The notes beneath the pieces were generated by a model. It was not told the origin of the DNA and made no database searches. It saw nothing but the letters and a program-made list of their open reading frames with translations. A DNA stretch of 64,000 bases from Candidatus Woesearchaeota archaeon. GTDB lineage: Archaea > Nanobdellota > Nanobdellia > Woesearchaeales > WAPJ01. The position numbers and the translations under genes were made by a program. The stretch covers positions 10,016 through 74,015 of the forward strand of contig JBLKOQ010000001.1 in NCBI GenBank assembly GCA_047602885.1, written 5' to 3'. Position 1 is the stretch's first letter. Each line of letters starts with the position of its first letter. Of the stretch, positions 5,781-61,662 are shown one piece after another.

Positions 5781-5921
5781 GGCTCTGTCCTAAATCTCCT
5801 ACTTCGCTTACCAAAACCCTATACTAAAGCATAGGAGCTTGGTAAGCTACGCCGTGCCAGTGCCATTATTGCTGCGCAAAATGACACCAACAATGGCAAC
5901 GACGGAGTCTTAGGACAGAGC
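5781..5921. mobile_element. MITE-like element, copy 4 (same GGCTCTGT termini as the other three copies, different internal sequence), flanked by perfect 10-bp direct repeat AATTAGCCCT
   Basis: 5' end GGCTCTGTCCTAAATCTCC and 3' end reverse-complementary GGAGTCTTAGGACAGAGC; direct repeats at 5771-5780 and 5922-5931; GC-rich and internally hairpinned relative to surroundings. Confidence 0.45.
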
Positions 5922-8287: not shown

Positions 8288-8288
8288 A

Positions 8289-9143: not shown

Positions 9144-9152
9144 GATGATACT

Positions 9153-15685: not shown

Positions 15686-16324
15686 ATGCAAACCAATATA
15701 AATGATACTATTATAGTATCAATTGATACTAAAATGGAAACGAAATTAAGGATTATAAACAGGATAGACAGGAAAAGCGGCGGAGTGCACATAAGGCAAC
15801 TGGCAAGAGAGGCTAATACAAGCTATAATAATGCAGTAAGAAACATCAGGATACTCGAAAAAGAGAATATTGTAAGAAGAATAAAAGATGCCAACCTCAT
15901 AAAAATATCCCTAAAAGACAATCCTATGACAATAGCATACCTCAAAAAAGTTCATACAGAAAAATACTATAATCTTCCACGAAGAGCAATATTAGCTGTG
16001 AATGAACTAATAAAAGAAATCATCCCAAAACCCCTAATATGCCTAATATTCGGATCATACGCCCGGGGAGATTACCACAAGGATTCGGACATCGACCTGC
16101 TGCTTGTATTCCAGAATGTACAGTCATCAATAAATATAGAAAGACTGGCAAAGGCTATAGGTATGAGAAACAATATAGTTATCAGTCCAATTTACATGAA
16201 CTACAAGGAATATTCTACCAACTTTCTAAACGTAGAACACGATTTCTCTAAAGAAATAAGAAATGACACGATAATAGTTTTAGGACTAGAACACTATTAT
16301 GAGCTATACTGGAGAATATTATAA
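15686..16324 (+). CDS. winged-HTH + minimal nucleotidyltransferase (MNT) domain protein, paralog 1 of 4
   Basis: GSYARGDYHKDSDIDLLLVF polymerase-beta-type NTase motif (GS...DxD) after N-terminal wHTH. Confidence 0.65.
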   Translation: MQTNINDTIIVSIDTKMETKLRIINRIDRKSGGVHIRQLAREANTSYNNAVRNIRILEKENIVRRIKDANLIKISLKDNPMTIAYLKKVHTEKYYNLPRRAILAVNELIKEIIPKPLICLIFGSYARGDYHKDSDIDLLLVFQNVQSSINIERLAKAIGMRNNIVISPIYMNYKEYSTNFLNVEHDFSKEIRNDTIIVLGLEHYYELYWRIL

Positions 16325-19744: not shown

Positions 19745-19787
19745 TACAAAAATATCATAATAGACTTATAAATACTTCTATCAGAAG

Positions 19788-19922
19788 GGCTCTGTTGCAA
19801 ATCTCAGAAAAAGTGTGCTATGCGCCACCCCGCAGGGGGCATCCCCCGGCACATCAGCGTCAAGCGTGAACGTTCGTTCCCGCTCCAGCTGACGGCTGCC
19901 GCACACTATTTGCAACAGAGCC
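19788..19922. mobile_element. MITE-like element copy 1 (GC-rich core, 15-bp inverted termini GGCTCTGTTGCAAAT, TSD TATCAGAAG)
   Basis: Terminal inverted repeats; direct repeats at 19779-19787 and 19923-19931; about 60% GC island in AT-rich DNA; homologous to the copies at 26981 and 52831. Confidence 0.55.
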
Positions 19923-19940
19923 TATCAGAAGATTCAATCC

Positions 19941-26980: not shown

Positions 26981-27115
26981 GGCTCTGTAGAAAATGTCCG
27001 AAAAAATGTGCTATGCGCCACCCCGAAGGGGTCATCCCCCAGCGCATCAGCGTCAAGCAAGAACATATGTTCTTGCTCCAGCTGACGGCTGCCGCACACT
27101 TTTTACTGCAGAATC
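26981..27115. mobile_element. MITE-like element copy 2 (same GC-rich core; TSD GAATTAAAT / GAATCAAAT)
   Basis: GGCTCTGTAGAAAAT ... TTTTACTGCAGAATC inverted termini; imperfect 9-bp direct repeats at 26972-26980 and 27116-27124; core about 85% identical to copies 1 and 3. Confidence 0.55.
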
Positions 27116-27118
27116 GAA

Positions 27119-27871
27119 TCAAATATCTATAATCTTCTCTACTTGGGTAGCAAACACTATCCACAATAACAATCCAGCACTAATCATCAGTCCAATAGCA
27201 TATCCTATAGGAGCATACAGCATGAATATTCCAAACAATCCTACAGCAGCCAGTAATGCCCAGTACATAGGATTATGGTATATAGTATAGAATCCTCCCC
27301 CATTAGGGATTGGAATAACATTAGCAAGACTGGTCCATACCATAGCTACTATAATGGCATTGGTTACAGGATTGCTAAAACCGAATATTATTATGAACAG
27401 CATGGCGATAAAGAGGTTAGAGAGCATACCTGCAAAACCCATCTTGGCATAGTCTGAAAGATTAATGCCGTGCCTGAACTTTCCTGTCCTCTGATACCTC
27501 AATATCTTAGCTTCCATGTCAGGAACGAATATTAACGGTGCAAGGCCTGCAGAGAATATGCCCACAAACAGTCCTGCGGCTATCTTCCAAGGAGAATACA
27601 ATACTTTTACATCAAAACCCTTATGCAAAGCCCAAGCCTTCTGTACCAATACATTAAGATATATTGCTATTCCGGCAGCGATAATTGCAAGCAGCATTGC
27701 CATGGACTGCCTTGCAGGATCAACAGGAAGGAATTCCCTAAAAATATTATAGTCCTCAAAGCCCAATACGAAGCCGCCTACAGCAATAAAAGCTATAATA
27801 ATCTTATTCTCATCCCATCGTGGAATGCAATACTTCTGGTAGTCGTGCCACCATCCTGAAAGGCTGAACAT
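27119..27871 (-). CDS. hypothetical integral membrane protein (6 TM)
   Basis: 250-aa ORF; MITE copy 2 abuts its stop codon. Confidence 0.4.
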   Translation of the reverse strand: MFSLSGWWHDYQKYCIPRWDENKIIIAFIAVGGFVLGFEDYNIFREFLPVDPARQSMAMLLAIIAAGIAIYLNVLVQKAWALHKGFDVKVLYSPWKIAAGLFVGIFSAGLAPLIFVPDMEAKILRYQRTGKFRHGINLSDYAKMGFAGMLSNLFIAMLFIIIFGFSNPVTNAIIVAMVWTSLANVIPIPNGGGFYTIYHNPMYWALLAAVGLFGIFMLYAPIGYAIGLMISAGLLLWIVFATQVEKIIDI

Positions 27872-27954
27872 GAAGATATTATGGTGGTATTGGTTTATAT
27901 GCGTTTTTGTTAATAGCTTAATAATGAATGATTGCTAATGGATAATAAATACAT

Positions 27955-28020
27955 CTGTCTACAGACTGAGAGCAGTTTCGACCATTAACTCCAATAACAC
28001 GTCCTTTAATGCGGTGTTGT
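27955..28020. repeat. short (about 60 bp) repeat, family 2, copy A (AGCAGTTTCGACCATTAACTCCAATAACACGTCCTTTAATGCGGTGTTG)
   Basis: About 80% identical to 53166-53225; preceded by CTACAGAC, which resembles the MITE terminus. Confidence 0.3.
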
Positions 28021-28024
28021 GAAT

Positions 28025-28525
28025 TTACAATAATAATATCTCTTGGGTTTTGTTCATAAATCCTATGACTTTGCTCTCATATTCTAATATCTTATCATTC
28101 CTAAAACCTATATTAGTGTTATAACTCGCTTTATGCCTGTCATATTTTAAGTCATAATACAATTGTGCGTCCTCCCTATTGATAGACAATTCGTATAATA
28201 AGTCCGCTTCATCTCTTGTCACAAGATACTCTTTTATGAGTATGAGCATAGTCGCATAGTGGTTTTTGGAATAATATCTTCTGTTGGTAATTAAGCTCAG
28301 TGCGCAATGGTAGAATGCATAATACAATATTACTATGAGCCAGTCTGCAAAATTGGTATGGATTTTGTTTATACTATAAAACCTCATATTGTGCTTGGCC
28401 TTATTAGCATGCGAAAAAGCAAGTTCCTTATTCTCCTTAATAATCCTAATCTGTTTTTGCGATTGCAGTATGCTTATCTCGGTCTCCAGATAATGTTTGT
28501 CTGCAAATAGTCGTTCGATATTCAT
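28025..28525 (-). CDS. HEPN-like helical protein, putative toxin partner of the upstream MNT gene
   Basis: 166 aa, 4-nt overlap with the NTase gene; Rx4-6H-like RRYYSKNH; homologous to 61571..62074 (YYAxY...S.NH..T.L). Confidence 0.4.
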   Translation of the reverse strand: MNIERLFADKHYLETEISILQSQKQIRIIKENKELAFSHANKAKHNMRFYSINKIHTNFADWLIVILYYAFYHCALSLITNRRYYSKNHYATMLILIKEYLVTRDEADLLYELSINREDAQLYYDLKYDRHKASYNTNIGFRNDKILEYESKVIGFMNKTQEILLL

Positions 28526-29088
28526 TCTATAATCGCCTCATAAAAATTCTGTTCCTTGTGTATTGGAAAACCTGTCTTTTTTGCCTGTATTATTATATCG
28601 TCATTACTTCGAATAAACTGCTCTGCAGAACAATAGAAGAGCGAGAGAGGATATTTTGAGGTTATCTCAGCCTCTTTCCTGCGCTTATCAAGGTCAGTTT
28701 TTTTATAGTACACTATGAGGAGGTCTATATCGCTGTTTTGATTCTGATCTCCGGTCGATGCAGAACCGAACAGAACTATAGTGTATATGCTTATGGGCAA
28801 GTCTTTGAGGAATGTCCTGAGAGGGCTCTTAACACCAATATTTAATGAATTGAATTTGCGTATTGCTATCTCTGAGAACTTGATTGCAATAATCTTTTTA
28901 TCACTAATAGAATAGTATACGTTTTGCCTGGTCTTTTCAGTTTTTAGTATGCCTTGCCTACTCATTCTGGCAAGAGTGTTCTGCAAAGAACTATGTGATA
29001 GCATAGTAGTTTCCTTAATCTGGTTATAGTACATCTTTTCTCCCTTCTGCACAAAGTATGCGTTGTATATTCTGTCTTCCGGTTTCAT
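28522..29088 (-). CDS. winged-HTH + minimal nucleotidyltransferase (MNT) protein, paralog 2
   Basis: LFGSASTGDQNQNSDIDLLIVY NTase motif, N-terminal wHTH. Confidence 0.65.
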   Translation of the reverse strand: MKPEDRIYNAYFVQKGEKMYYNQIKETTMLSHSSLQNTLARMSRQGILKTEKTRQNVYYSISDKKIIAIKFSEIAIRKFNSLNIGVKSPLRTFLKDLPISIYTIVLFGSASTGDQNQNSDIDLLIVYYKKTDLDKRRKEAEITSKYPLSLFYCSAEQFIRSNDDIIIQAKKTGFPIHKEQNFYEAIIE

Positions 29089-32321: not shown

Positions 32322-32903
32322 CTATCTTATCATCTCATAGAAATATTCCGTTCCGTGCAATATAATATTATTATTAATCGCTTCTGAGCCCACAGTAAAT
32401 TCTTTAGACATACTCATAGACTTGAATTCTGTTTCATTAAAAACGTTGATATGTAGAGGCAGTGGTATAGTGGATGATATGCTCATTATTTCTTTATTCA
32501 TAATTTCTTCTAGACCATCGGGTATGATGAACAATAGATCAATATCAGAATGTCTTGTTGGGTTTCTTTTAGCATAACTTCCAAAAAGCAACAATACGAA
32601 GAATACAGTACTCATATTATTATAATAGCTTAAAACTGCTCTTATCGTCTTATTTCTTAGGATATCTTCTCTTCTATTATGCTCTGCTTCAAATATGTAG
32701 GGGTGCGGTTTTTTTACTAGTGTGACTTTGTGGGCATTTCCAAAAGGCTCTAATACTACTATGTTATTGTTTGCTAATCTCATAATTATATTATGCATGT
32801 TCTTATAATCCTTTTTTAGTATCTTGGCCAGTCCTCTAATGCTCAATCTCAGGTTATTGTAGTCCAATAATGCCTGGATAACTTTTACATCTGCTTTTTG
32901 CAT
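32322..32903 (-). CDS. winged-HTH + minimal nucleotidyltransferase (MNT) protein, paralog 3 (no HEPN partner)
   Basis: LFGSYAKRNPTRHSDIDLLFII NTase motif. Confidence 0.6.
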   Translation of the reverse strand: MQKADVKVIQALLDYNNLRLSIRGLAKILKKDYKNMHNIIMRLANNNIVVLEPFGNAHKVTLVKKPHPYIFEAEHNRREDILRNKTIRAVLSYYNNMSTVFFVLLLFGSYAKRNPTRHSDIDLLFIIPDGLEEIMNKEIMSISSTIPLPLHINVFNETEFKSMSMSKEFTVGSEAINNNIILHGTEYFYEMIR

Positions 32904-38400: not shown

Positions 38401-41400
38401 GCTAATGATTATGGTCGGCTTGGTGATGGTACTACTACAGGTCCTCGTACAAATCCCACTTTGACTGCAGACTCTTCTGCATATGTAGCCGTTTCAGCGG
38501 GGGATTGGCACACTTGTGGTATAAGATCTTACGATGGTCGTGTGTTGTGTTGGGGGTATAACGAGTTCGGTCAGATTGGCGATGGTACCACTACGACTCC
38601 ACGTCAAAATCCAACGCTTACAAGCAACATGGCTCCATTCGCCGAAATTCCTTGGGTCTTTACAACATGCGAAGCAACTGGTCGCACTGGTCCTACTCAA
38701 GGTATGTGTGACGATGCATACGAATACTCTTATCTGAACAATAGTGTAACTGTATCTTCAGGCATACAATCATGGACTGTTCCTGAGACGGGATGGTATA
38801 ATGTTACTGCAGTTGGAGCTCAAGGAGGATACGGTGGGAGAACGGGTGTTGGGGGATACGGCGCTCTCATTTCAGGTGCTTTCTACTTCGAAGAGGGAGA
38901 GACAATCAATGTTCTCGTTGGTCAGAAAGGTGGAGATAACTCGTTTCGACCGGCAGGTGGTGGTGGAAGTGCAGTGTGGAAGGATACTGGAACCGAACTC
39001 CTCATCGTCGCTGGAGGTGGAGGAGCGTATGCAGTTGGAACAACGACCACCTACCAGGACCGAGCACACGCGAGCAACACAACAAGTGGGAAGGATGGAT
39101 TTGGTGCCACGGCTCAGAGCGTGGGTGGAACCGGAGGTCTTGGAGGTGCCGGAACAGGTAACCGAGCCTCTGGTGGTGGAGGATGGTTTACTGATGGTGG
39201 ACAGGGCACGACGGCTGACAGTCGTGGCCGATCCCTCTCAGGAGGGGGTCTTGGAGGTGGTGGTGCTGTAGCTGACGGTGGATTTGGTGGTGGCGGAGCG
39301 ACCGATAGCACGACGACATGGGGTGCTGCTTCTGGTGGTGGTGGGTACTCTGGTGGTGGGGGTGGGTATTCTAACACAAACGATGCTGAAGGAGCTGGGG
39401 GCGGTGGAGGATCATACAATTCTGGGTTGTTCCAGTATAACGTCGGAGGAGAGAACGCTGATCATGGCTTGGTCATTATCGAGCCATACGGTGATGTCTC
39501 ATTACTCACCGTGGGAGTTACTCCTTCTCCCGAAGCGAACGCTACCGATGATCTTCTTGGATATTGTACGAGTGATGTCATCGATGGATTCGACCGGATC
39601 GACTATGAGTGGAGACGTGACGGCATAGTCGAGTACATGGGAACGTACTTTAGAGCAGATACGATCACAGCGCATGAAGCTCACACTTGTGGTATTCGTG
39701 CTAATGATTCTCGTGTGTTATGTTGGGGACGCGCGGGTAGTGGTGAGATTGGGAATGGAAGCAAGCTACCACAAGTGCTTAATCCAACACTCACCTCTGA
39801 TACTGATCCTTACCTTCAAGTGAGCGTCGGATTCACTCATTCGTGTGGTATCCGCTATGACGGAAGAGTGCTCTGCTGGGGAAACAACGCTGAAGGGCAG
39901 TTGGGAACAAACGATACGACTGAACGACTCGTTCCTACTTTGATTGCGGATGATGCTGCCTACCATTCCCTCAGCGCAGGATACCGGATGAATTGTGCGA
40001 TACGTGCTAATGATTCTCGTGTGTTATGTTGGGGTGACAATGTATTCTCTCAACTCGGCAGTGGAGGTGGATCGGTGAGCGTTCCGAGGCTCATCAATGA
40101 TACCGCTTCCTACCTGATGGTTTCCACTTACAAGTACCACGCGTGTGGTATTCGTGCTAATGATTCTCGTGTGTTGTGCTGGGGGATGAACTGGTACGGT
40201 CAGGGTGGTAATGGAACAACTGACGAGTTCGTGTCATCCGAGACTCCGACCCTCACGACCGATAGTTCACCATATGTAATGGTAACAACAGGTGCCTCTC
40301 ATACGTGTGGTATTCGTGCTAGTGATTCTCGCGTGTTGTGCTGGGGTCGTAATAATAATGGGCAGCTTGGAATCGGTTCGAGCGGTACAAATGTCGGTAA
40401 CCCCACAACGACTTCAGATTCATCTGCATATCACTACATAGATGCTGGTTGGCAGTTCTCATGTGGCATCAGATCGTCTGATAATAGAGGTCTTTGTTGG
40501 GGGGATAATGGTGAGGATAAACTTGGTATCGGAACGACCGGTAATCGTGAAAACCCTACACTTATATCTGCTTCGTTTGCGATATCGTTGATTACTGCTG
40601 GTGAACGCCATGGGTGTGTGGTTCGCTCTTCGAATGGGCGTGTGTACTGCTGGGGACAAACTGCTGAAGGACGTACAGGAGATGGGGTAGGTATTGGTAC
40701 TGAGCACACACCGACGCTCACAACAGACACTTCCTCGTATGCGTACTTACCTGCTATTGCCTCTGGCGTGCAGTATAACCTCTCAACACTTGACTCAACG
40801 ATAACGAATGGTGGAGACTCATGGACGTTCTCATGCCGGATTACAGACGGTCGAACGACCTATCCATACGAGGAGAGTGCTACGATAACGATTGCAAACA
40901 TTATTCCGATTTATTCAAAGTTTGATGGTTCAACAACGAACTTTTCTGATGCTAGTGTTGTTCCTGACCTTTCAAGCGTGAGCAATCCGATTCTTGAGAT
41001 ATCCACGTTCGGACGCATCACATGGAAAGGTATGGTAAACGTTCCTAGTTCAGATTATGATTCTCATGTGCATATTGGTTATCGGTACATTTTTGTTAAT
41101 AGTAGCGCGTTGCATTCATCTCATGATTCGGGTTCGAATTTGAGCTTTTATGATACGGGCTTCGTGCATGCTCCTGTCATCCTCAAAGATAGTTCTGTGT
41201 GTGAACAACCCTTGTGTAACATGACTGGATTTGTTGATGGTTACGTGAATTACTCAGTGGCTGGTTTCTCAAACTACACGCTTGATTCTAATAGTCGATT
41301 GGAGATCTGGGATGGTACTGATCCTCAAGGAGGAAATAATTCGTATGAGGTTGGTGAATCGGTGCCTTTCTATGCAAATTATTCGAATCTGACTTCTGGT

Positions 41401-44400
41401 GAACCGATTTCGGGTTCGGGGAACGATTGTGAGATCCAATTTGATACTGGGAGCGGGTATGGGAGTTTTATAGAGATGGAATTTAACGCAACAAGTAACT
41501 TGTACGAGTACAACACCACATTTGGATCTGCAGGGACGTTCAGTTATAACGTGAGTTGCACTAGCACCCAAGGATATGAGAACCTGAGCGTGACTAATGA
41601 GTTCACATACAATCCTGCAAACTGTTTTGACAATTCGACGAGTCCTATACCAATTTGTACATGTACTGATCTTAGCAGGATGTGGGAGAACCTTACAGCA
41701 AACTATGAATTGCAGAATAATATAGACTGTAGTGATACTATTAATTGGAATGATGATGAGGGATGGCTGCCTGTAGGGACAACAGGTACGGGTTTTAGTG
41801 GTACGCTGGATGGGCAGGGATATAATATTACTGACTTGTTCATTGCTCGAAATAATGTTGGTTATCAAGGTTTGTTTGGTCAGTTAACTACAGGAGGAAG
41901 CATTACTGATTTAGGTTTGGTGAATGCGAATATCACCATAAAAGACACACTCAGTATAGTGACTCCATATATTGGGATTCTTGTAGGATATATCGATGGA
42001 GGCAGTGTCTCTGGATCTTATGTCACAAATAGTATTCTCTATAGTGATTTTCCCTCTACTGGTGGTCTTATAGGAGAAATGAGTGGTGGTAGTGTTGTCT
42101 CATCTTCTTTTGTTAGTGGTTCTAGTGTTTCTTCTTCTACTAGTAATGTTGGTGGTCTTATAGGAAGAATGAGTGGTGGTAGTGTGTCATCTTCTTATAC
42201 GGTGGATTCTAGTGTTTCTTCTACTGGTAGTAGTGTTGGTGGTCTTGTAGGATATATGCTGAGTGGTAGTGTTGTTTCATCGTCTTATACTATTGGTTCT
42301 AATGTTTCTTCTACTAGTACTCGGGTTGGTGGTCTCGTAGGAAGAATGTGGAGTGGTTCTAGTATTGTTGATTCTTACAGTACTAGTAATGTTTATGCTC
42401 TTGCAGGAGAAAACTTACAATATCATGGTGGACTAGTAGGACAAAACTATAGGGGAGTGATAAACAATTCTTATAGTACAGGAATAGTTAATAGTACACA
42501 TGATGATAGTGGTGGTTTTGTAGGAAGCGTAGATACAGGAGCTGCGACTTATGGTATGTATGGTAACTTCTGGGATAACCAGACAAGCGGTCGTAGTACT
42601 AGTGCTGGTGATAATGTAACAGGACTTACTACAGCGCAGATGTATAATATCAGTCAGTTCTTAGCGGCAGATTGGAATATTAGTGAGATTAGCGGTTATA
42701 ATAATGAGACTTGGTTTATTGATGATGGTAATGATTATCCTAGATTATGGTTTGAGTTTGATCTTGCTTTATTGGATATTGAGTCTGTAGGCATTATTCC
42801 AAGTCCTTTTGCTTTGGATGATGAGAATCTCGTAGGGTATTGTAGTGCTACTGGTAGTGAGAATTTTACGAGGTTGGATTATTTGTGGTATAAGGATGAT
42901 GTAGTGGAGTATGGGGGTGCTTATTTCAAGGAAGGAAGTATTAGTGCTGGTGGGGAGTTTTCTTGTGGTGTTCGTGCTAATGATTCTCGTTTGTTGTGTT
43001 GGGGTGCTAATTTTGTTGGTAAGTTGGGTATTGGTAATACTACTCATATGTATAGTCCTGTTTTGGTTGATTCTTCTGATGCTTTTTTGAGTGTTTCTGT
43101 GGGTGTTTCTCATTCTTGTGGTGTTCGTGCTAATGATTCTCGTGTTTTGTGTTGGGGGCTAAATAGTGAGGGGCAGTTGGGTATTGGTAATACTACTGAT
43201 ATGTTTAGTCCTGTTTTGGTTGATTCTTCTGATGCTTTTTTGAGTGTTTCTTTAGGTAGTTTTCATTCTTGTGGTGTTCGTGCTAATGATTCTCGTGTTT
43301 TGTGCTGGGGTGGTAATATTTATGGTCAGTTGGGTGTTGGTAATACTACTGATATGTTTAGTCCTGTTTTGGTTGATTCTTCTGATGCTTTTTTGAGTGT
43401 TTCTTTAGGTAGTTTTCATTCTTGTGGTGTTCGTGCTAATGATTCTCGTGTTTTGTGTTGGGGTGGTAATTGGGTTGGTCAGTTGGGTGTTGGTAGCGCT
43501 GTTTATGATTCGTGTTTTGATGGTTATGAATATTACGATTGTAGTTTGAATCCTGTTTTGGTTGATTCTTCTGATGCTTTTTTGAGTGTTATGGTGGGTG
43601 TTTCTCATTCTTGTGGTGTTAGGGCGAGTGATTCTCGTTTGTTGTGTTGGGGTGCTAATGCTAATGGTCAGTTGGGTGTTGGTAATACTACTGATATGTT
43701 TAGTCCTGTTTTGGTTGATTCTTCTGATGCTTTTTTGAGTGTTGGTCTTGGTTTTGGACATTCTTGTGGTGTTAGGGCGAGTGATTCTCGTGTTTTGTGT
43801 TGGGGACGTAATTTTGGAGGTCAGTTGGGTGTTGGTAATACTACTAGTCCTATTATGGTTCCTGTTTTGGTTGATTCTTCTGATGCTTTTTTGAGTGTTG
43901 ATGGTGGTTTTGGTGGTGGTTTTGGTGAGCAGCATACGTGTGGTGTTCGTGCTGTTGATGGTCGTGTTTTGTGTTGGGGTGATGGTTCTTTTGGTGCTTT
44001 GGGAACAGGCAATACTAGTTCTCAGTTGAGTCCGACTCTTACTATTGATTCGAGCAGTTATCTTAGGGGGCTTTCTCCGCAGACGACTTATAATGTTTCT
44101 TTGATAGGGAGTGGGTTGACTAGTTTGGGGGAGGAGTGGAAGCTTAGTTGTCGCGCTGTAAATGTTACTAGTGCGGGGGATTTTGTTAATTCTACTGTTA
44201 CTACGATTGATGAGGGTGAAGAGGGTTTGGATTGTGGTGTTATCGATGAGCCTGGAGAGTATATTATGAATGGCGACCTTGCGGCTACCGGAACTTGTAT
44301 TACTATTAATGTTAGTGATGTTTCATTAGATTGTCAGGGTCATACGATCAACTACTCTACAAACGATGACGAGGGCTACGGTATCCTGATATGGAGCCAG

Positions 44401-47400
44401 AGCGGGACGGTCGAAAACGTGAGTATCGCGAACTGTAACATCATCAAAGAGAGTCCTGGAGGGAGCTCAGGGAGTAGGCGCCCAGCTATCCTCGGATACG
44501 GCTACTCAGGTACTCCTTCAGGAGGTTTCACAAAATCAGGTGATGAGCATACTGTTGAGCAAGTAAATATATCGAACGTTACTATCACGACCGAGGGAGA
44601 TTATGCTCGAGGCATATTTGTCTTAAGTGGTCATACTTGGAGTGTCGAAGATGTCTCTATCACAACGTATGGAGATGATGCCCGAGGAATCTACAGCGAG
44701 AACTCTGATCATTGGAGTCTCAGGAGAGTTGATATCACGACCTTTGGAACTGTAGGGATAGGACTGTATACGATCGATGCAAACCACTACTATCTCAAGG
44801 ACATCGATATCACTGCTGCGAGCGCAGGCATGTGGATCCGCACGGGAAGTTCGAACTGGCGGGCAGAGAACATTTCGATAAATGCTACGCTTCAAGGTAT
44901 CGCGACATCGGACGGAGGTATGGCTCACATGAGTTTTTACAACTCTACGATCCACTCATCAGGAAGCCGGGGATTAGATACCAATCAAGGTACAGATAAC
45001 ATCAGCTTCTACGATTCTATTATCACCGCTCCATCAAGTGACGATGTATACATGCGTCTTGGTGATGCGAGTCGGCGTGTTACGTTCGTCAACGTGACTT
45101 TCAACCCTTCCAGTGTCACGTTCCATGACTCGACCTCAGGATTCCTCGACGTTGGATGGTACGTCGACTTTCTCGTAAACGATACTCTAAGTTATCGAGT
45201 TGAGAATGCTAATATTAGTTGGCAGGATTCTGGTGTTATGAGCAGTTTGAACCCTAACAGTACTGGTTGGAAATTAACTGATAGTGGTGGATTGTCTCTA
45301 AGAAATATATTGTATGAGTACTCGCAGAACCAAACTGCTAGGTACTATCATACTAACTATAGCTTCGACATAAGTAGCCCATCATACGCTTCCCTTGTTG
45401 GAGCGTCTAGGAACTTCACTACAAATACACAATTGGATTTTACTATAGAGCCATTGTCGTTGGAGTGTGGTGTTATTAGCGAGCCTGGCTCTTATGTTAT
45501 GACTACTAATCTTACTGCTACAGGCACGTGTTTCACTATTAATGTTAGTGATGTAATACTGGATTGTCAGGATTATACTATTAATTATTCGACTGCTGAT
45601 GAGGGTTATGGTATTTTGATTTGGAGTCAGTCTTCTAATGTGGATAATGTTACGATACAGAACTGTGTTGTTGTGCAGGGTTCTGGTGAGGGTGATGTGA
45701 ATAGTGCGCGTCCTGGTATTTTGGGTTGGGGTGTTAATAATGGTCCGAGTGGTGGTTTGTCGAGTGTTAGTGGTATTTTTTATGAGGTTACTAATGTTTT
45801 GGTTGTGGATTCTAGTATAGTAACATTGGGTGATCGTTCGGATGCTATTAGGGGTGCGGTTTCGTATGACTGGGATGTTGTGGGTGTGAATGTTTCTACT
45901 GCTGGTCAGCTTGCTTCGGGTGTTTTTGGTACTTTTACGGGGGGTTGGTTGTTGTCTGGTGTTGATTCTTTTACTACCGGTGATAATTCTAGGGGTTTTG
46001 CTAGTTGGGATTCTGTTGATTGGGAGATTGTGGATTCTCGTTCTGAGGTTACTACTTTTTATTCTTATCCTATTCGTGCTGAGGAGGGTTCTCATGGATG
46101 GGTTCTGTCCAATGTTTCTCTTATCTCTGATGGTTTTGAGTCTGATGGGCTTCATGTGATTGATTCGGATAATTGGATGGTTGAGGGTCTTTTTGTTTCA
46201 TCATCGGGCACTCAGGCTGATGCTTTTTATTTAGAGGATTCTGATGGTTGGATGGTTTATGATTCTGATTTGTCTAGTGGGTCTGCGTTTGATGTTGTTC
46301 TTAATCTTAGTGATTCTTCGTATCGTGTTGGTTTTGTGAATACGAGTTTTGATCATTCTAGCGTGTCTCTTCTTACTCCGGGCTGGCTTGATAGGGGTTG
46401 GTGGGTGGATGCGTATGTGAATGATAGTCTTGGCAGTCCTGTAGAGGATGCTAATGTCTCTTGGAATGATGCTGGTATTATTAGTGGGAATCCTAGTAGT
46501 AGTGGTTGGAATGTTACTGATGATAGTGGACTTAGTGTTAGGAATGTCTTGTTTGAATATTCTGAGAATCAAACTGCGAGATATTATAATACTAATTATA
46601 CTATTAATGTTAGTCATGAGGATTATGATGATCTTATAGGAGAGTCAAGGAATTTTACGGGTAATACGCAGTTGAACTTTACTTTTTTGGGTGAGTCTTT
46701 AGAGTGCGGTGTTATTAGTGAGCCTGGCGAGTATGTTATGACTTCTGACTTGTCTGCTGCTGGTACTTGTTTTACTATTAATGTTTCTGATGTTAGTTTG
46801 GATTGTGGGGGTCATACGATTAACTATAGTACTGGTGAGGAGGGTTATGGTATTTTGATTTGGAGCCAGGGTGGGTTGGTTGAGAATGTGAATGTTAGTA
46901 ATTGTAATATTGTTAAGGATAGTGAGGAAGGTAATAGTTCGAGTCTTAGGCCTGCCTTACTTGTTTATGGTCGTAGTGCTGTTCCTAGTGGTTCTATTAG
47001 TGGTATTGCGGGTACTGCTCATTATGTAGATAATGTGTCTATTAATAATGTTAATGCTAGTAGTAAGGGAAATTATAGTAGTGGGATTTTTATAGTGCGA
47101 GGATGGTATTCTTCTATTAGTAATGTTATGGTTGATACTGATGGTAATTGGAGTTTTGGGATATGGGGCGATTACTCTTCTTATTGGAATATTTATAATA
47201 CTAGTATTTTTTCGTTAGGGCTGTTTAATGTTGGTCTGTATGGGGTGGATTCTAATTTTTGGGTTTTAGATAGTTTAAATGTAGATGTTGAGTTCAATGA
47301 TGGTCATGGTATTATTGGTTTTCGGTCAAATTCTTGGATTCTTTATAATGTTACTGTTATTGCTGACGGTTCTACAGTTAGGGGAATATCTCTATGGGAT

Positions 47401-48882
47401 CTTAATAACTGGACTGTTATAGACTCTTTTATTGATAGTACTTTTTATGATATTAATATGGAGTTAGATCATAGTACTCGTCAAGCTTTTTTTATTAATA
47501 CAAGCTTTAATAAGAGTAGTGTGTATTTTACTAATGCTAATGCTGGTTGGCTTAATCGTGGTTGGTGGGTTGATTCGTATGTTAATGATACTATAGGGAA
47601 TCCAATTAGTGGTGCTAATGTGAGTTGGGTGGATAATGGTAGTCTTGCAAGCAATCCTTCTGCTAGTGGTTATAGTTTGACTTTGGTTGATGGGACGGTG
47701 AGGAATGCCATATTCGAATATTCTCAGAACCAGACTCATACGTTTGAGCATAATAATTATACTTTTAATGCGAGCAAGGAAGGATTCTTACATAGTGATA
47801 TTGTTCAAAATATAACTGATAATGCCTTCATTTACTTTACATTAGAAACCGATGACATTGATCCTCCGACATGGTCTGATCCTTGGGATAACAGTACTGA
47901 TACTAGCCCTAGGATTAATGAGAATATAAGGATGAACTTAACACTAAACGATGATGTTGACTTGTTCAGCTATACTTTTAGTTGGAATGGTACTGGTTCA
48001 TGGACTAATGATAGTATACAGTTAATATCAGGCACAGAGCATATTTTAAGCGTTATTAAGCAAGTAGGATTGCCTAGAGACAATACTATAGGATGGAGAG
48101 TATACTTTAATGACAGTGCAGAAAAGACAAACATCTCTGATATATTCACATTCACTGTAAAGAACACTCCTCCTGATGTTCCTATACTAAATTATCCTCT
48201 AAACGACAGTGATATTTACAATAGAACGCCATTATTCAACTGGACGGGATTCGATGCAGACTCTGATGAATTAACATACAACCTCACGATATACTGCATA
48301 GGAGGATGCAGTGCTGACAACAGGCATTATCAAGGAATAACAACTAACGAATTCCAGCTTGAAGAAGAACTCCAGTTCCTATACGATGACGGATACTCAT
48401 ACTTGTGGAGCGTTAATGCATGCGACCAATATGAATGCTCAGAATACTCCCAAAACAACACGTTCACTCTCTCAAGCCTCTTATCAGTCAGATTCACACA
48501 AAACGATTCGGACTTCGGCATGATGCAGCTCGGACAAACCAATAGTACTGAGGATAACAGCCCAAACCCTCTTGTACTGGTAAACGAAGGAAACGTAAAA
48601 GTAAATATTAGCTTCTACGCCCAAACCCCGTTATTTGAAAGAGCTGCACTGCCAAGCCCATTCTTTGAGGCAAGAATAAGGCCATTAATAGGAAATTATG
48701 GCATAGACACTAATACGAGCTGGTTTGACCTGGACGATTCAGAAAACCCTGCTCACATGCTAAGAAAACTAAATTATACAACAGACAATAATGCCACTAT
48801 AGACTTAAGAGTAACAGTTCCTATAGACGAGCCTCCAGCAGAGAGGAGCAGTACTATTACAGCAATGGTGGTGATGTCATGA
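35422..48882 (+). CDS. giant secreted multidomain surface protein (4486 aa): signal anchor, S8 subtilase, RCC1 block 1, ALK-like glycine-rich domain, RCC1 block 2, GLUG repeats, RCC1 block 3, three tandem beta-helix modules, fn3-like C-terminus
   Basis: Uninterrupted 13.46-kb ORF; apparent TTG start (in-frame stop just upstream). Catalytic triad motifs IVDTG / HGHGT / GTSMSVPFVSAAAG. More than 20 copies of an HSCG(I/V)RANDSRVLCWG...G.LG.G motif. Three about 410-aa modules each starting L(D/E)CGVI(D/S)EPG.Y(I/V)M. Confidence 0.85.
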   Translation: MGLKQVVVQVTIVVVIIAALIFTFFSIGEPTITGYAVFESSVSNVSYDVERVVLPQETYTIQLEDNVVVRGIVINGYYIASKDSSIIARLDEGTISHELRLRSNVITGMAIGAGEVESGMIEEDLANRTLLRYGDGPYDIDNDGMVGRQGAVDYYVETNASCVLWSIVGDDVDLFCQGTIECCDSYLLESMDDNPNYLVLDRQRAGADRGEVLAKADGYDFSRMLPYDFTGAEERLVRLDDVCLGSCNVRMQSSSIRIESSAYLHIDRIIVYYDDLPDDEIFDTEDGNIIEEVLPEKRVIREEMIEYIVYESEGGIIGRTVSELKSHYGLSRASERSAKIFSMDYEHISEEEETEYTEGINAHIIRVSSELLNLVTEESVRIIILNESGIYSEYANNLSELNEILHSKEVITASIDRQIELLTQDTLNASGFISVYNEYEVSGSGVRVCIVDTGVSGHVVENISYTGVNVLDGTDDIMDYHGHGTLVSYPLIRALPDAHYVIVKALDDTGIGYESDVISGLDACAEHDVDVVSLSIGAGLYDGYCDTNLVSERVNELVSEGVLVVSAAGNEAGPYLKAPSCASSALAVIAYTDDSLWYQSSYLEGHAVFAAPGVVETIGPDGSVVLSSGTSMSVPFVSAAAGLLVEYTNDTGLVLRNRLVGTGDLLGDEFLFSRLNVSRAFSGEITNELLYNISEGVEVEGTVYYRGTSFIAGTITTGNGHSCGIRAVDGRVLCWGRNNVGQIGDGTTAGPRTNPTLTTDTSAYTFISSGEQHSCGIRANDSRVLCWGSNGNGVLGDGTTVQRENPTLINDSSAYLTLGLGQGHSCGIRANDSRVLCWGWNGNGRLGDGTDEARWNPTLTSDTSAYSGITAGAHYSCGIRANDSRVLCWGTNNYGQLGDGTDVVRWNPTLTSDTSAYLHVSGGGWHSCGIRASDSRVLCWGRNNVGQIGDGTTTTPRLNPTLTTNTSAHGTVSAGNDYSCGIRVNDSRVLCWGANDYGRLGDGTTTGPRTNPTLTADSSAYVAVSAGDWHTCGIRSYDGRVLCWGYNEFGQIGDGTTTTPRQNPTLTSNMAPFAEIPWVFTTCEATGRTGPTQGMCDDAYEYSYLNNSVTVSSGIQSWTVPETGWYNVTAVGAQGGYGGRTGVGGYGALISGAFYFEEGETINVLVGQKGGDNSFRPAGGGGSAVWKDTGTELLIVAGGGGAYAVGTTTTYQDRAHASNTTSGKDGFGATAQSVGGTGGLGGAGTGNRASGGGGWFTDGGQGTTADSRGRSLSGGGLGGGGAVADGGFGGGGATDSTTTWGAASGGGGYSGGGGGYSNTNDAEGAGGGGGSYNSGLFQYNVGGENADHGLVIIEPYGDVSLLTVGVTPSPEANATDDLLGYCTSDVIDGFDRIDYEWRRDGIVEYMGTYFRADTITAHEAHTCGIRANDSRVLCWGRAGSGEIGNGSKLPQVLNPTLTSDTDPYLQVSVGFTHSCGIRYDGRVLCWGNNAEGQLGTNDTTERLVPTLIADDAAYHSLSAGYRMNCAIRANDSRVLCWGDNVFSQLGSGGGSVSVPRLINDTASYLMVSTYKYHACGIRANDSRVLCWGMNWYGQGGNGTTDEFVSSETPTLTTDSSPYVMVTTGASHTCGIRASDSRVLCWGRNNNGQLGIGSSGTNVGNPTTTSDSSAYHYIDAGWQFSCGIRSSDNRGLCWGDNGEDKLGIGTTGNRENPTLISASFAISLITAGERHGCVVRSSNGRVYCWGQTAEGRTGDGVGIGTEHTPTLTTDTSSYAYLPAIASGVQYNLSTLDSTITNGGDSWTFSCRITDGRTTYPYEESATITIANIIPIYSKFDGSTTNFSDASVVPDLSSVSNPILEISTFGRITWKGMVNVPSSDYDSHVHIGYRYIFVNSSALHSSHDSGSNLSFYDTGFVHAPVILKDSSVCEQPLCNMTGFVDGYVNYSVAGFSNYTLDSNSRLEIWDGTDPQGGNNSYEVGESVPFYANYSNLTSGEPISGSGNDCEIQFDTGSGYGSFIEMEFNATSNLYEYNTTFGSAGTFSYNVSCTSTQGYENLSVTNEFTYNPANCFDNSTSPIPICTCTDLSRMWENLTANYELQNNIDCSDTINWNDDEGWLPVGTTGTGFSGTLDGQGYNITDLFIARNNVGYQGLFGQLTTGGSITDLGLVNANITIKDTLSIVTPYIGILVGYIDGGSVSGSYVTNSILYSDFPSTGGLIGEMSGGSVVSSSFVSGSSVSSSTSNVGGLIGRMSGGSVSSSYTVDSSVSSTGSSVGGLVGYMLSGSVVSSSYTIGSNVSSTSTRVGGLVGRMWSGSSIVDSYSTSNVYALAGENLQYHGGLVGQNYRGVINNSYSTGIVNSTHDDSGGFVGSVDTGAATYGMYGNFWDNQTSGRSTSAGDNVTGLTTAQMYNISQFLAADWNISEISGYNNETWFIDDGNDYPRLWFEFDLALLDIESVGIIPSPFALDDENLVGYCSATGSENFTRLDYLWYKDDVVEYGGAYFKEGSISAGGEFSCGVRANDSRLLCWGANFVGKLGIGNTTHMYSPVLVDSSDAFLSVSVGVSHSCGVRANDSRVLCWGLNSEGQLGIGNTTDMFSPVLVDSSDAFLSVSLGSFHSCGVRANDSRVLCWGGNIYGQLGVGNTTDMFSPVLVDSSDAFLSVSLGSFHSCGVRANDSRVLCWGGNWVGQLGVGSAVYDSCFDGYEYYDCSLNPVLVDSSDAFLSVMVGVSHSCGVRASDSRLLCWGANANGQLGVGNTTDMFSPVLVDSSDAFLSVGLGFGHSCGVRASDSRVLCWGRNFGGQLGVGNTTSPIMVPVLVDSSDAFLSVDGGFGGGFGEQHTCGVRAVDGRVLCWGDGSFGALGTGNTSSQLSPTLTIDSSSYLRGLSPQTTYNVSLIGSGLTSLGEEWKLSCRAVNVTSAGDFVNSTVTTIDEGEEGLDCGVIDEPGEYIMNGDLAATGTCITINVSDVSLDCQGHTINYSTNDDEGYGILIWSQSGTVENVSIANCNIIKESPGGSSGSRRPAILGYGYSGTPSGGFTKSGDEHTVEQVNISNVTITTEGDYARGIFVLSGHTWSVEDVSITTYGDDARGIYSENSDHWSLRRVDITTFGTVGIGLYTIDANHYYLKDIDITAASAGMWIRTGSSNWRAENISINATLQGIATSDGGMAHMSFYNSTIHSSGSRGLDTNQGTDNISFYDSIITAPSSDDVYMRLGDASRRVTFVNVTFNPSSVTFHDSTSGFLDVGWYVDFLVNDTLSYRVENANISWQDSGVMSSLNPNSTGWKLTDSGGLSLRNILYEYSQNQTARYYHTNYSFDISSPSYASLVGASRNFTTNTQLDFTIEPLSLECGVISEPGSYVMTTNLTATGTCFTINVSDVILDCQDYTINYSTADEGYGILIWSQSSNVDNVTIQNCVVVQGSGEGDVNSARPGILGWGVNNGPSGGLSSVSGIFYEVTNVLVVDSSIVTLGDRSDAIRGAVSYDWDVVGVNVSTAGQLASGVFGTFTGGWLLSGVDSFTTGDNSRGFASWDSVDWEIVDSRSEVTTFYSYPIRAEEGSHGWVLSNVSLISDGFESDGLHVIDSDNWMVEGLFVSSSGTQADAFYLEDSDGWMVYDSDLSSGSAFDVVLNLSDSSYRVGFVNTSFDHSSVSLLTPGWLDRGWWVDAYVNDSLGSPVEDANVSWNDAGIISGNPSSSGWNVTDDSGLSVRNVLFEYSENQTARYYNTNYTINVSHEDYDDLIGESRNFTGNTQLNFTFLGESLECGVISEPGEYVMTSDLSAAGTCFTINVSDVSLDCGGHTINYSTGEEGYGILIWSQGGLVENVNVSNCNIVKDSEEGNSSSLRPALLVYGRSAVPSGSISGIAGTAHYVDNVSINNVNASSKGNYSSGIFIVRGWYSSISNVMVDTDGNWSFGIWGDYSSYWNIYNTSIFSLGLFNVGLYGVDSNFWVLDSLNVDVEFNDGHGIIGFRSNSWILYNVTVIADGSTVRGISLWDLNNWTVIDSFIDSTFYDINMELDHSTRQAFFINTSFNKSSVYFTNANAGWLNRGWWVDSYVNDTIGNPISGANVSWVDNGSLASNPSASGYSLTLVDGTVRNAIFEYSQNQTHTFEHNNYTFNASKEGFLHSDIVQNITDNAFIYFTLETDDIDPPTWSDPWDNSTDTSPRINENIRMNLTLNDDVDLFSYTFSWNGTGSWTNDSIQLISGTEHILSVIKQVGLPRDNTIGWRVYFNDSAEKTNISDIFTFTVKNTPPDVPILNYPLNDSDIYNRTPLFNWTGFDADSDELTYNLTIYCIGGCSADNRHYQGITTNEFQLEEELQFLYDDGYSYLWSVNACDQYECSEYSQNNTFTLSSLLSVRFTQNDSDFGMMQLGQTNSTEDNSPNPLVLVNEGNVKVNISFYAQTPLFERAALPSPFFEARIRPLIGNYGIDTNTSWFDLDDSENPAHMLRKLNYTTDNNATIDLRVTVPIDEPPAERSSTITAMVVMS
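36700..37450 (+). other. subtilisin-like S8 peptidase domain within the giant protein
   Basis: Asp near 36775 (CIVDTG), His at 36868-36870 (HGHGT), Ser at 37312-37314 (GTSMS). Confidence 0.7.
37560..38620 (+). repeat. RCC1 block 1: seven tandem about 150-156-bp repeats (CATTCGTGTGGTATTCGTGCTAATGATTCTCGTGTTTTGTGCTGGGGT core), CGT/GGT/GTT codon regime
   Basis: Core recurs at 37582, 37738, 37891, 38041, 38206, 38352, 38509. Confidence 0.75.
38740..39500 (+). other. glycine-rich domain resembling the ALK/LTK-type glycine-rich domain (Pfam Gly_rich-like): VLVGQKGG ... LLIVAGGGGAY plus poly-Gly tracts
   Basis: Motifs INVLVGQKGGD, GGGGSAVW, LLIVAGGGGAYA, multiple GGGG(Y/S); GC-richer codon regime. 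Confidence 0.45.
39530..40740 (+). other. RCC1 block 2 (about 8 repeats) preceded by a linker homologous to the one before block 3; GC-richer codon regime
   Basis: Repeats HTCGIRANDSRVLCWG ...; linker VTPSPEANATDDLLGYCTSD ... parallels IIPSPFALDDENLVGYCSAT ... at 42790. Confidence 0.6.
41790..42750 (+). other. GLUG-motif repeat region (GGL(I/V)G(R/E/Y)M(S/L/W)GGSV ... x6)
   Basis: Repeated VGGLIGRMSGGSVSSS-type units about 25 aa long; opening GTLDGQGYNITDLF is typical of GLUG domains. Confidence 0.5.
42950..44010 (+). repeat. RCC1 block 3: seven tandem about 153-180-bp repeats; units at 43216-43371 and 43372-43527 are nearly identical
   Basis: CATTCTTGTGGTGTTCGTGC core at 42958, 43111, 43264, 43426, 43606, 43759, 43934; GATTCTTCTGATGCTTTTTTGAGTGTT recurs 6 times. 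Confidence 0.75.
44200..47830 (+). other. three tandem about 1.2-kb homologous modules (A 44200-45430, B 45430-46690, C 46690-47830) with right-handed beta-helix (pectate-lyase-like) character
   Basis: Each begins L(D/E)CGVI(D/S)EPG(E/S)Y(I/V)M ... TINVSDV(S/I)LDC(Q/G)(G/D)(H/Y)TINYST ... EGYGILIWSQ and ends ... ARYY(H/N)TNY. Module A is in the GC-richer regime, B and C in the GT-rich regime. Confidence 0.55.
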
Positions 48883-51568: not shown

Positions 51569-51999
51569 TAATACTAAGAACATTAGGCGAAAAACTGGAA
51601 TACTATTCCAAAGCAGTATTAAGGATAGGAATATCAATAGTATTCTTATGGTTGGGAGTATTGCAGTTAACTGACAGCCAATTATGGAAAGAATATGTTC
51701 CTGACATAATAATAGGAATAATCGCCAATCCAGAATTACTAGTGGTCATTAACGGAACAGTCCACATAGTACTAGGCACACTATTATTGGCAGGAGGATT
51801 CACTAGAATAACAGCGTGGGCATTATCAGCAAACCTAATAATAATATTATTAGGGATAGGATATGACATTATAGGAATACTAACACTCGGAATGCTCGCA
51901 GGAACAATAAGCATAGCAATGACAAGTAACGATCCTCTAAGAATAGACAATAGGATAAGACTATTCAGAAAAAAGAAAGATCCTATAAGCTTCGACTAG
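51565..51999 (+). CDS. DoxX-like small membrane protein (4 TM)
   Basis: 144 aa, 4 TM topology; 4-nt overlap with the cyt b5-like gene. Confidence 0.4.
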   Translation: MIILRTLGEKLEYYSKAVLRIGISIVFLWLGVLQLTDSQLWKEYVPDIIIGIIANPELLVVINGTVHIVLGTLLLAGGFTRITAWALSANLIIILLGIGYDIIGILTLGMLAGTISIAMTSNDPLRIDNRIRLFRKKKDPISFD

Positions 52000-52784
52000 T
52001 ATGATATATCAAAGAGTATAGGATAATGGTCTGACGCCCAGTTGGTATGCTTGTCTTTAGGAACAATCCCAGATAATACTTTAATATCCTTGGATACAAA
52101 CAAGTGGTCTATCCTAATCCCAGACTTCTTATTAATACTAGCATAATCTGTAGGAATAGTATAAGTCCTATTCATCCTGGGCATGGCATCCCTAAGACCA
52201 TAACGCCTAAGCATAGGAATAAGCTTAGGACTTAACAGCTCTTCAGCCTTCCTCTCAGGCTCATGATTGGCAAGAGAATAAAAAGCATCTATAATAGCAT
52301 TAATATCGTACTTGTCATGGTCTGAAACGGCATTAAAATCTCCCGTAATAATATAAGGATGTTTCTTAGCCTTCATAAGAGGTCTTACACTCTCGGCTCT
52401 CACAGACTCACTGATATTAGGAGAGGCATGATATACGTCAACATACAACTTCTTCCTCCCAGTCCTAACCATCCCAGTAATAGCAGTCCTGTCAACAAGC
52501 TTGATTACACGAGCATCTATAGGATAACGAGACAATAAGCAAGAGCCCCACTCATGGTCCCCCCAAAAGCCAAAAAAACCATGTTCGTAACCAAATATCC
52601 TCTGATAGTCCACATATATTCCAGTATGATTATAACCTCCATAACAAGCCTCGCATAATACCAGTATGTCAGGATTATGTATTCTTACAGCTTTTTTGGC
52701 ATGGTTAAGCCTAGCCCTGTCAAGAATATGCTCATTAGAATGAAACCCGTGCAGTATATTATAAGTCATTATCCTAATCTTCAT
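51996..52784 (-). CDS. endonuclease/exonuclease/phosphatase (EEP) family protein
   Basis: N-terminal IMTYNILHGF, C-terminal SDHYPILFDI motifs. Confidence 0.7.
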   Translation of the reverse strand: MKIRIMTYNILHGFHSNEHILDRARLNHAKKAVRIHNPDILVLCEACYGGYNHTGIYVDYQRIFGYEHGFFGFWGDHEWGSCLLSRYPIDARVIKLVDRTAITGMVRTGRKKLYVDVYHASPNISESVRAESVRPLMKAKKHPYIITGDFNAVSDHDKYDINAIIDAFYSLANHEPERKAEELLSPKLIPMLRRYGLRDAMPRMNRTYTIPTDYASINKKSGIRIDHLFVSKDIKVLSGIVPKDKHTNWASDHYPILFDISY

Positions 52785-52830
52785 AAACAGCCATGATAGA
52801 ATGATATTATTTAATACTATCCCTTAGATT

Positions 52831-52966
52831 GGCTCTCTAGTAAATGTCTGTAAAAGTGTGCTATGCGCCACCCCGTAGGGGCCATCCCCCGGCGGCATCA
52901 GCGTCAAGCAAGAACAGGTGTTCTTGCTCCAGCTGACGGCTGTCGCACACTTTTACTACAATGCCT
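52831..52966. mobile_element. MITE-like element copy 3 (same GC-rich core) 47 bp upstream of the EEP gene start
   Basis: GGCTCTCTAGTAAAT ... TTTTACTACAATGCC termini; imperfect direct repeats CTTAGATT / TTCAGATT at the flanks. Confidence 0.5.
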
Positions 52967-53111
52967 TCAGATTACATAATAGTCATCGTGGTATAATGAG
53001 GATAGAGATCCAATTCTGAGCTTGTCTATAATCCTAGTAGGGTCTTTAGGCCTAAGAATATTGTCATACATCAGCATCTCGATAATACTCGATAATGGTG
53101 TGCTAGGATAG

Positions 53112-53225
53112 ACAGGCTCTATGCCACTATTATGATTGTTAATGGGTCGGGTACATACCTCGGTCTTTAGGTCGATAGCAGTTTAACCATTAACTCCAAC
53201 ATACCGCGCCCTTTAGGGCGGGGTT
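53112..53225. repeat. family-2 short repeat copy B, preceded by a GGCTCTATGCC MITE-terminus-like sequence
   Basis: AGCAGTTTAACCATTAACTCCAACATACCGCGCCCTTTAGGGCGGGGTTG is about 80% identical to 27964-28017. Confidence 0.25.
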
Positions 53226-53463
53226 GTTGATTATGATAATAGAAATAGTATGCGTAGGGCGCATTATCATCATCACAATCCTTGATAAAAAAGAATGTAG
53301 GAAAATCCCCAATATTACTGCATACTTCATGATACTTGTATCCTGCCTCGCTAATCAGCCTGACATTGCCAAGAGCATCATAATACATTCTATTGAGGAT
53401 GCGTTTCTCATCCAATCCAATGCGATTAGAGTAGTCTACGGGTTGCATGATAATGATTGACAA
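53167..53463 (-). CDS. hypothetical protein
   Basis: 98-aa ORF; its 3' end overlaps the family-2 repeat; weak. Confidence 0.3.
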   Translation of the reverse strand: MSIIIMQPVDYSNRIGLDEKRILNRMYYDALGNVRLISEAGYKYHEVCSNIGDFPTFFFIKDCDDDNAPYAYYFYYHNQQPRPKGRGMLELMVKLLST

Positions 53464-61041: not shown

Positions 61042-61662
61042 ATGTTGCAAAAATCGAACAATATTGCGCTTGATATCATAGAATTATTGGTTGTAAAAGA
61101 CTTACACCTAAGAGCAATATCAAGAACACTATCATATAATCCAAGCACAGTACTAAGCAAACTGAATAGCCTGATGGAAGACAACATATTAGACTATAGG
61201 AGAGAAGGCAAAAACAAGATATTCTTCCTCAAAAAGAACCAATGGACAAAAAACTATCTTGTCCAAATGGAATGCCACAAAGCACTCAAATTTTTCCGAA
61301 AAAAACAGGAATTCAGCGTAATTTTTGAGGAAATACTAATGAAAACTGATGCGCAATTAGTATTATTGTTCGGAAGCTATGCGAAAGGCACAGAAAAAGG
61401 CAACAGTGACATAGACATATACGCAAATACCAAAAACATCCGAGATGTCAAGGAGATAAGAAGCATCCATGCCAGAATAAGGGCTACTATAGGAGAACTA
61501 CAAAAGGATACGGAACTATTCAATGAGATCATGAACAACCATATTGTCATAAGAGGAGCTGAAAAACTGTATGAGGAATACTGGTTTCCTGAAAAAACTG
61601 GCAAGAGAACACAAAATAAGCATCTTAGAACCCTCAAAAAACCTAACAAGAGCATACCTTAA
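61042..61662 (+). CDS. winged-HTH + minimal nucleotidyltransferase (MNT) protein, paralog 4
   Basis: LLFGSYAKGTEKGNSDIDIY NTase motif. Confidence 0.65.
   Translation: MLQKSNNIALDIIELLVVKDLHLRAISRTLSYNPSTVLSKLNSLMEDNILDYRREGKNKIFFLKKNQWTKNYLVQMECHKALKFFRKKQEFSVIFEEILMKTDAQLVLLFGSYAKGTEKGNSDIDIYANTKNIRDVKEIRSIHARIRATIGELQKDTELFNEIMNNHIVIRGAEKLYEEYWFPEKTGKRTQNKHLRTLKKPNKSIP

Follow-up and report, generated by a model that had tools for sequence, protein, structure and literature searches.

The nuclease locus and its element

The locus lies in a 64-kb window, the whole stretch of Woesearchaeota DNA analysed here, and centres on an endonuclease/exonuclease/phosphatase-family (EEP) nuclease gene that is intact, of full length and 78–81% identical to its orthologues in two relatives (protein identity of 81% in L036 and 78% in L035). 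Its product shows 100% identity to a protein assigned by NCBI to a Candidatus Woesearchaeota MAG. A TATA-like box sits between this gene and a short GC-rich element, which lies ~14 nt upstream of the box, and a further gene follows on the other side of the element (Table 1). The original prediction placed a MITE-like copy at 52831-52966, 47 bp upstream of the EEP gene. Its left end and the distance are correct, the left tip being 47 nt away from the first base of the ATG, whereas the right tip is at 52965. The termini given for this copy are indeed GGCTCTCTAGTAAAT and TTTTACTACAATGCC, and its flanking repeats, described as imperfect, are degenerate: CCTTAGATT and TTCAGATTA agree at 6/8 positions ungapped or at 8/9 with one indel. 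No ORF of at least 40 aa is listed in 52831-52965. On the side of the upstream gene, the flanking duplication supplies the stop codon of that gene (TGA at 52967-52969, minus strand), and on the nuclease side the minus-strand AATCTAAGG runs on into the flank that is common to the empty sites of the relatives.

Table 1. Positions of the nuclease locus features and of the small repeated elements in the window
Feature	Position	Strand	Description
EEP (endonuclease/exonuclease/phosphatase-family) gene	51996..52784	-	Pfam Exo_endo_phos, E 3.8e-19
TATA-like box TATTAAATA	52808..52816	-	-32 to -24 from the EEP ATG
Family A copy 3, left target-site duplication copy CCTTAGATT	52822..52830		minus strand = AATCTAAGG; degenerate
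Family A copy 3 (probable MITE)	52831..52965	+	135 bp; 56% GC vs 39% GC in the window
Copy 3, left terminal inverted repeat GGCTCTCTAGTAAAT	52831..52845	n/a	IS6/IS26-type tip, GG...G7
Copy 3, core hairpin B region	52865..52896		GCGCCACCCCGNAGGGGNCATCCCCC...
Copy 3, core hairpin A	52897..52937		ATCAGCGTCAAGC AAGAAC .... GTTCTT GCTCCAGCTGAC
Copy 3, right terminal inverted repeat TTTTACTACAATGCC	52951..52965		reverse complement = GGCATTGTAGTAAAA
Copy 3, right target-site duplication copy TTCAGATTA	52966..52974		degenerate; includes the stop codon of the upstream gene
Upstream gene	52967..53448	-	paralogous to the adjacent 136-aa gene; interrupted by a family C element
Family C element C1	53132-53232		101 nt, inside the upstream gene
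Family A copy 1	19788..19922	+	both tips GGCTCTGTTGCAAAT; perfect 9-bp duplication TATCAGAAG at 19779-19787 / 19923-19931
Family A copy 2	26981..27115	+	duplication GAATTAAAT / GAATCAAAT, 8/9
Family B element	5781..5921	+	tips GGCTCTGTCCTAAA ... TTAGGACAGAGC; interior unrelated to family A

Three families of small elements in the window

Formal alignment groups the element with two others into family A, three 135-bp copies in one orientation. It bears out the GC-rich core that had been proposed to be common to copies 1–3, and the homology to copies 1 and 2 on which that proposal depended extends over the full 135 bp at 83–87% identity. The core motif GGGGNCATCCCCC occurs three times in the window against 0.08 expected from dinucleotide shuffles, and the terminal inverted repeat (TIR) motif four times against 0.09 expected from the same kind of shuffles. 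All family A copies have the same layout, in which an outer inverted repeat of 14–15 bp and an asymmetric spacer of ~10 nt are followed by a 7-bp GTGTGC/GCACAC stem and two internal hairpins, giving a Y shape; runs of T4–T6 follow the GCACAC stem on either strand of the element. Copy 1 carries GGCTCTGTTGCAAA at both ends and its outer stem is perfect. Copies 2 and 3 show decayed tips, at 2–3 mismatches per 14 bp, and it is doubtful that these two copies would still be mobile. Copies 1 and 2 are positioned like copy 3: the minus-strand gene that comes next has a TATA-like box, and the copy is found a few nucleotides upstream of it. In the case of copy 2 there is, in addition, an overlap with the stop codon of the preceding gene (27119..27871), which is carried by the right copy of the duplication.

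Family B is represented in the window by one element, flanked by a 9/9 duplication ATTAGCCCT (10/10 with the preceding A). Its interior is as structured as that of family A, with an unrelated sequence. Since the tips are common to families A and B and the interiors differ, a single transposase seems to serve at least two families of passengers. The genes flanking the family B element encode a ThiF-family protein and a CrtI-like oxidase. The region 6001-9932 holds a carotenoid-type cluster in this DPANN host, comprising genes for an amine-oxidase/CrtI-like protein, a squalene/phytoene synthase, a UbiA prenyltransferase and a Caroten_synth family protein.

Family C is of another kind. Removal of 101 nt (~53132-53232) from the gene upstream of copy 3 restores a 126-aa ORF, and tblastn with the L036 orthologue matches this gene in two frames. 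A second copy, at 27928-28025, is 73% identical to the 53132-53232 insert. Elements of this family are ~100 nt long, without TIRs and with one hairpin near each end. Judged by these features, family C is a third, different small mobile element, and it could be an IS200/IS605-style palindromic element. The gene pair 28025..29088 is missing from the syntenic position in L037, which suggests a possible inserted toxin-antitoxin-like module. Four nucleotidyltransferase (NTP_transf_2/Polbeta) genes are present in the window (15686-16324, 28522-29088, 32322-32903 and 61042-61662). Another conspicuous feature is a single 4486-aa ORF at 35422-48882, composed mostly of ~51-aa (153-nt) RCC1-like repeats together with other tandem units, the counterparts of which in relatives span 4127–4679 aa. 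A 15-nt exact match to the copy 1 tip within a giant gene of L038 was dismissed as chance (E 0.025, no partner end). A phage origin of the window was likewise rejected, since a DNA comparison with 50,697 phage records gave no match and the genes are those of a cellular archaeon.

The source is a metagenome assembly, and short-read contigs break within the element, as might be expected of a chance repeat or an assembly artefact. Such an origin is exceedingly improbable, given that three diverged copies (83–87% identity) occupy different, otherwise unique contexts, each with a duplication of its own, and that two independent Logan assemblies contain the first 51 nt of the element without a difference. 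In the Logan assemblies of two sequencing runs the same genes are found at 100% identity, and the contigs break within each of the four elements that were checked, with ends placed in A3 (52881), A2 (27075) and B (5834). The samples SRR32456880 and SRR32456869 contain this organism. Contig ends inside elements imply k-mers common to copies elsewhere, so that the families are multicopy; the break in family B implies further copies elsewhere in the genome, despite the one copy in the window.

Empty sites in relatives

Five syntenic relative loci (L035–L039, ~71 kb; L037 and L038 cover largely one region) were available for comparison. Neither BLAST nor the covariance model found a family A element in any of them. 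As the model was derived from the three copies, their own scores carry no independent weight; it identified no further full family A copy in the window either. Gene order is conserved in L036 and L035 (P-type ATPase, 259 aa, 137 aa, 137/131 aa, EEP nuclease and DoxX). The comparison with genomes lacking the insertion that had been proposed as a check reveals an empty site in both: the distance from the upstream stop to the annotated nuclease start codon is only 27 nt in L036 and 31 nt in L035. The empty site of L036, TAAGGGATAATATTAAATATTATCATTCC, and the minus-strand flank of the window element, AATCTAAGGGATAGTATTAAATAATATCATTC, match continuously. These short matching spacers indicate that the stop codon of the upstream gene was the exact point of insertion.

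The sites of copies 1 and 2 in L037–L039 are also without the element, but the surrounding context differs there. Between the 250-aa and 254-aa genes, the window has 41 nt plus MITE copy 2, while the spacer measures ~265–294 nt in L037 (10754-10936) and L039 (897-1161) and, in L037, includes an ORF of 60 aa that is called on the other strand. Because of these differences, the copy 2 site is not alignable base for base.

Relationship to IS6/IS26-type elements

The 14-bp consensus of IS6/IS26 ends is GGTTCTGTTGCAAA, in which G1, G2 and G7 are invariant and positions 3–4 vary most (PMC6807381). The copy 1 tip GGCTCTGTTGCAAA agrees with this consensus at 13/14 positions and, again at 13/14, with the real IS26 ends in plasmid NZ_CP023725, where GGCACTGTTGCAAA is found at both ends, 820 bp apart. 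G1, G2 and G7 are kept in the intact tips, as in IS6/IS26 insertion sequences and MITEs, and G10 is present in all family A ends. Having G10, the tips are closer to the bacterial consensus than to archaeal IS6-like TIRs as published. Like IS6/IS26 MITEs, family A is non-coding and has both IS-type ends. The IS6-family MITEs of ISfinder, MITEBth2 and MITEHarch3, are 227 and 336 bp long, respectively (PMC7986276, PMC6807381), and families A and B, at 135–141 bp, are shorter than both.

The element at 52831-52965 is very likely a MITE, a DNA transposon of the non-autonomous type, with IS6/IS26-type TIRs around a 105-bp GC-rich Y-shaped interior. The MITE-like reading of the original prediction is upheld by the small size, the lack of coding capacity, the TIRs and duplications, the several copies and the empty site in two syntenic relatives. 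Presumably, the GG...CTGT...AAA tips served as recognition sites for a DDE transposase whose gene lies elsewhere in the genome, and a staggered cut at insertion would have duplicated ~9 bp of target. Formal membership in the IS6/IS26 family is a separate matter. The duplication is 9/9 in copy 1, 8/9 in copy 2 and 9/9 in family B, so that a length of 9 bp fits three elements out of four; if 8 bp is assumed, one more tip base is required at each element. For IS6/IS26 elements the target duplication is 8 bp (PMC7986276). Furthermore, no transposase domain, including Pfam DDE_Tnp_IS240, was detected among ~50 larger window ORFs, of which ~40 were scanned with Pfam and three were assessed via the annotation of relatives or contigs, several ORFs <170 aa being left out. 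Because of the 9-bp rather than 8-bp duplication and the lack of a transposase in the scanned ORFs, we refrain from assigning the elements to the family. Besides the duplication length, they differ from IS6/IS26 elements in their unrelated GC-rich Y-shaped interior and in their DPANN archaeal host.

The IS1 family, with ends GGnnnTG and direct repeats of 8–9 bp (ISfinder table 8 in PMC10425158), resembles the elements in that their tips also read GGnnnTG and their duplication is 9 bp long, the comparison with IS1 ends covering the GGnnnTG part. The tip part TGTTGCAAA is an IS6/IS26 signature.

The strong folding of the element as single-stranded DNA, together with the occurrence of family C in the same window, without TIRs and with hairpins near both ends, would also be in keeping with a REP/BIME-like or IS200/IS605-derived palindrome moved as ssDNA by a Y1 (HUH) transposase. 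Elements mobilised by HUH enzymes make no target duplications, and REPs are ~20–40 nt long; palindromic elements of this type are short, have no TIR and carry a conserved tetranucleotide. Families A and B, by contrast, have full-length IS6/IS26-type TIRs and 9-bp duplications, and such a palindrome is a very improbable account of them.

As far as can be told, family A is newly described, although its kind is well known; it was set beside the archaeal MITE catalogue by published description only. Archaeal MITEs have been catalogued in Sulfolobus, Halobacterium and Haloquadratum, and in a 2024 census of 8220 archaeal genomes one Woesearchaea genome was among the densest, with 105 MITEs/Mb (PMC10969869, PMC11602168). 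The elements described here share with the catalogued ones their small size, TIR boundaries, intergenic location, multiple copies and strong folding, and their density, four per 64 kb (~60/Mb), falls inside the range reported for DPANN. Among bacteria, structured MITEs that affect expression include Correia/NEMIS of Neisseria and SPRITE/BOX/RUP of pneumococcus, and QMITE2 of Coxiella combines 7–9 bp repeats, 23–29 bp TIRs and a 113–145 bp core (PMC10969869). The likeness to these lies in the TIR stem with a structured core, the site just outside coding sequence and the terminator-like stem with a T-run. There is no sequence kinship, however, and the host is an archaeon with its own promoter and terminator rules; the comparison on our side is one of sequence.

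The structured core

Folding of family A exceeds that of shuffled controls on both strands (RNA z -4 to -8; ssDNA z -6 to -8). It is conceivable, if rather unlikely, that the GC-rich core is a functional structured RNA with its sense on the window minus strand, spread or duplicated within the genome, the TIRs being incidental or a vehicle. The element would then be an exapted or cargo-carrying one, with a small chance in our estimation of providing a regulatory or stabilising RNA beside promoters. Equally tentatively, the 105-bp Y-shaped interior might be a selectively maintained module (a minus-strand RNA) spread by the IS6-type ends to positions just upstream of promoters.

Several features of the alignment point in this direction. 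Variable columns number 16/98 in the core and 11/29 in the tips (16% vs 38%; Fisher p = 0.02), and a core that is better conserved than the tips is at odds with simple neutral decay of a dead MITE. Yet this contrast (p about 0.02) and the other signals in the alignment are weak, as they come from n=3 sequences. Within the core, 9/28 unpaired columns vary as against 7/70 paired ones. Compensatory changes are found in three pairs; one stem pair of hairpin A, for example, differs between copies 1 and 3 by a compensatory A-U to G-C change. In the minus-strand CCCCGNAGGGG, the sole variable base falls at position N of a C(UNCG)G-type loop, which reads UACG, UUCG or UGCG. Several one-sided changes remain paired as G-U on the minus strand, but the pair-keeping one-sided changes are near balanced between the strands, 5 vs 4. 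Likewise, the minus-strand fold is better by 5–9 kcal/mol in family A and by 19 kcal/mol in family B, while folding as ssDNA is equally significant. The three family A copies share their orientation relative to the gene immediately downstream, which runs in the same direction as the minus strand; no promoter-like TATA box is found within or directly upstream of the element. Moreover, the element is missing from syntenic relatives that retain both neighbour genes, and its TIRs and duplications prove insertion by transposition.

Rfam 15 gave no match at either threshold: there was none at gathering score in the whole window, E > 9 noise alone was returned for 52700-53100, and none was obtained in L034, a contig of a different Woesearchaeota lineage. 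A tRNA, tmRNA or known ncRNA was rejected, with ARAGORN and Rfam both negative. A hammerhead-like reading of the junction CUGAUG was also rejected, because GAAA and other core elements are absent and the Rfam ribozyme models do not match.

Recurrence outside the window takes the form of a single partial relative. A scan of genome contigs with a gapped 22-base pattern returned 26 chance matches, mostly in GC-rich bacteria, and none of them aligned past the pattern. The plasmid scan revealed no relative, and viral contigs yielded nothing or chance 20-mers only. The sole real partial relative from the metagenome scan is L034, of a 52% GC Woesearchaeota lineage, in which 43 nt of intergenic sequence (5286-5328) are ~90% identical to hairpin B, as would favour a functional core. 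This segment belongs to a hairpin-rich spacer of 310 nt that precedes a response-regulator gene, and no convincing TIRs or duplications surround it. Contigs of this lineage from different samples are with or without a 43-nt insert, which is located exactly in the loop of a GGGGG-ATG-CCCCC hairpin and bounded by ATG/ATG; the matching segment in L040 is at ~2821-2863. An archaeal bulge-helix-bulge (BHB) intron was rejected as an account of this indel, since no BHB can be drawn on either strand.

Possible effect on the nuclease gene

The TATA-like box TATTAAATA is conserved in both relatives (L035 and L036), and the insertion leaves it intact. By archaeal promoter rules, a box 24–32 nt before the ATG has a spacing that would suit a leaderless transcript. 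With the box intact between the element and the gene, any influence of the element on EEP expression, as suggested in the original prediction, would be one of insulation from, or termination of, upstream transcription and not of promoter disruption. Of the possible side effects, the likeliest would be that the stable stem with its T-run (T4–T6 on either strand) ends or insulates upstream transcription before the EEP promoter.

The MITE insertion hit the stop codon of the upstream gene. A stop was retained in one copy of the duplication, and the other copy adjoins the BRE/TATA-like region that is conserved ahead of the EEP gene. The end of the upstream frame and the EEP core promoter thus both survive, and this probably explains how so compact a genome could tolerate the insertion. 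The placing of the copies at stop-codon/promoter boundaries is explained most simply by survivorship, other insertions destroying something where spacers are ~30–40 nt. At present the element most likely resides passively in the genome.

Significance

The current understanding of MITEs is unchanged by these elements, and only two points would be of wider interest, namely that the core may be under selection and that it recurs in a second lineage. If the core were functional, it would represent a prokaryotic analogue of a functional SINE, or a 'cargo MITE', in ultra-compact DPANN genomes; the interior would supply terminators, insulators or regulatory RNA, and hairpin B would be common to distant, GC-richer Woesearchaeota. 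For annotation, the elements are of value in that they account for contig breaks and GC-rich islands in such metagenome-assembled genomes. The IS6/IS26 transposase family is best known for the spread of antibiotic resistance in bacteria, and the combination of IS6/IS26-type tips with a duplication of 9 bp hints that this family has an archaeal relative yet to be described. Overall, a streamlined Woesearchaeota (DPANN) genome with 30–40-nt spacers still holds at least three families of miniature mobile elements, the surviving insertions of which are either placed at a stop-codon/promoter boundary or gene-killing.
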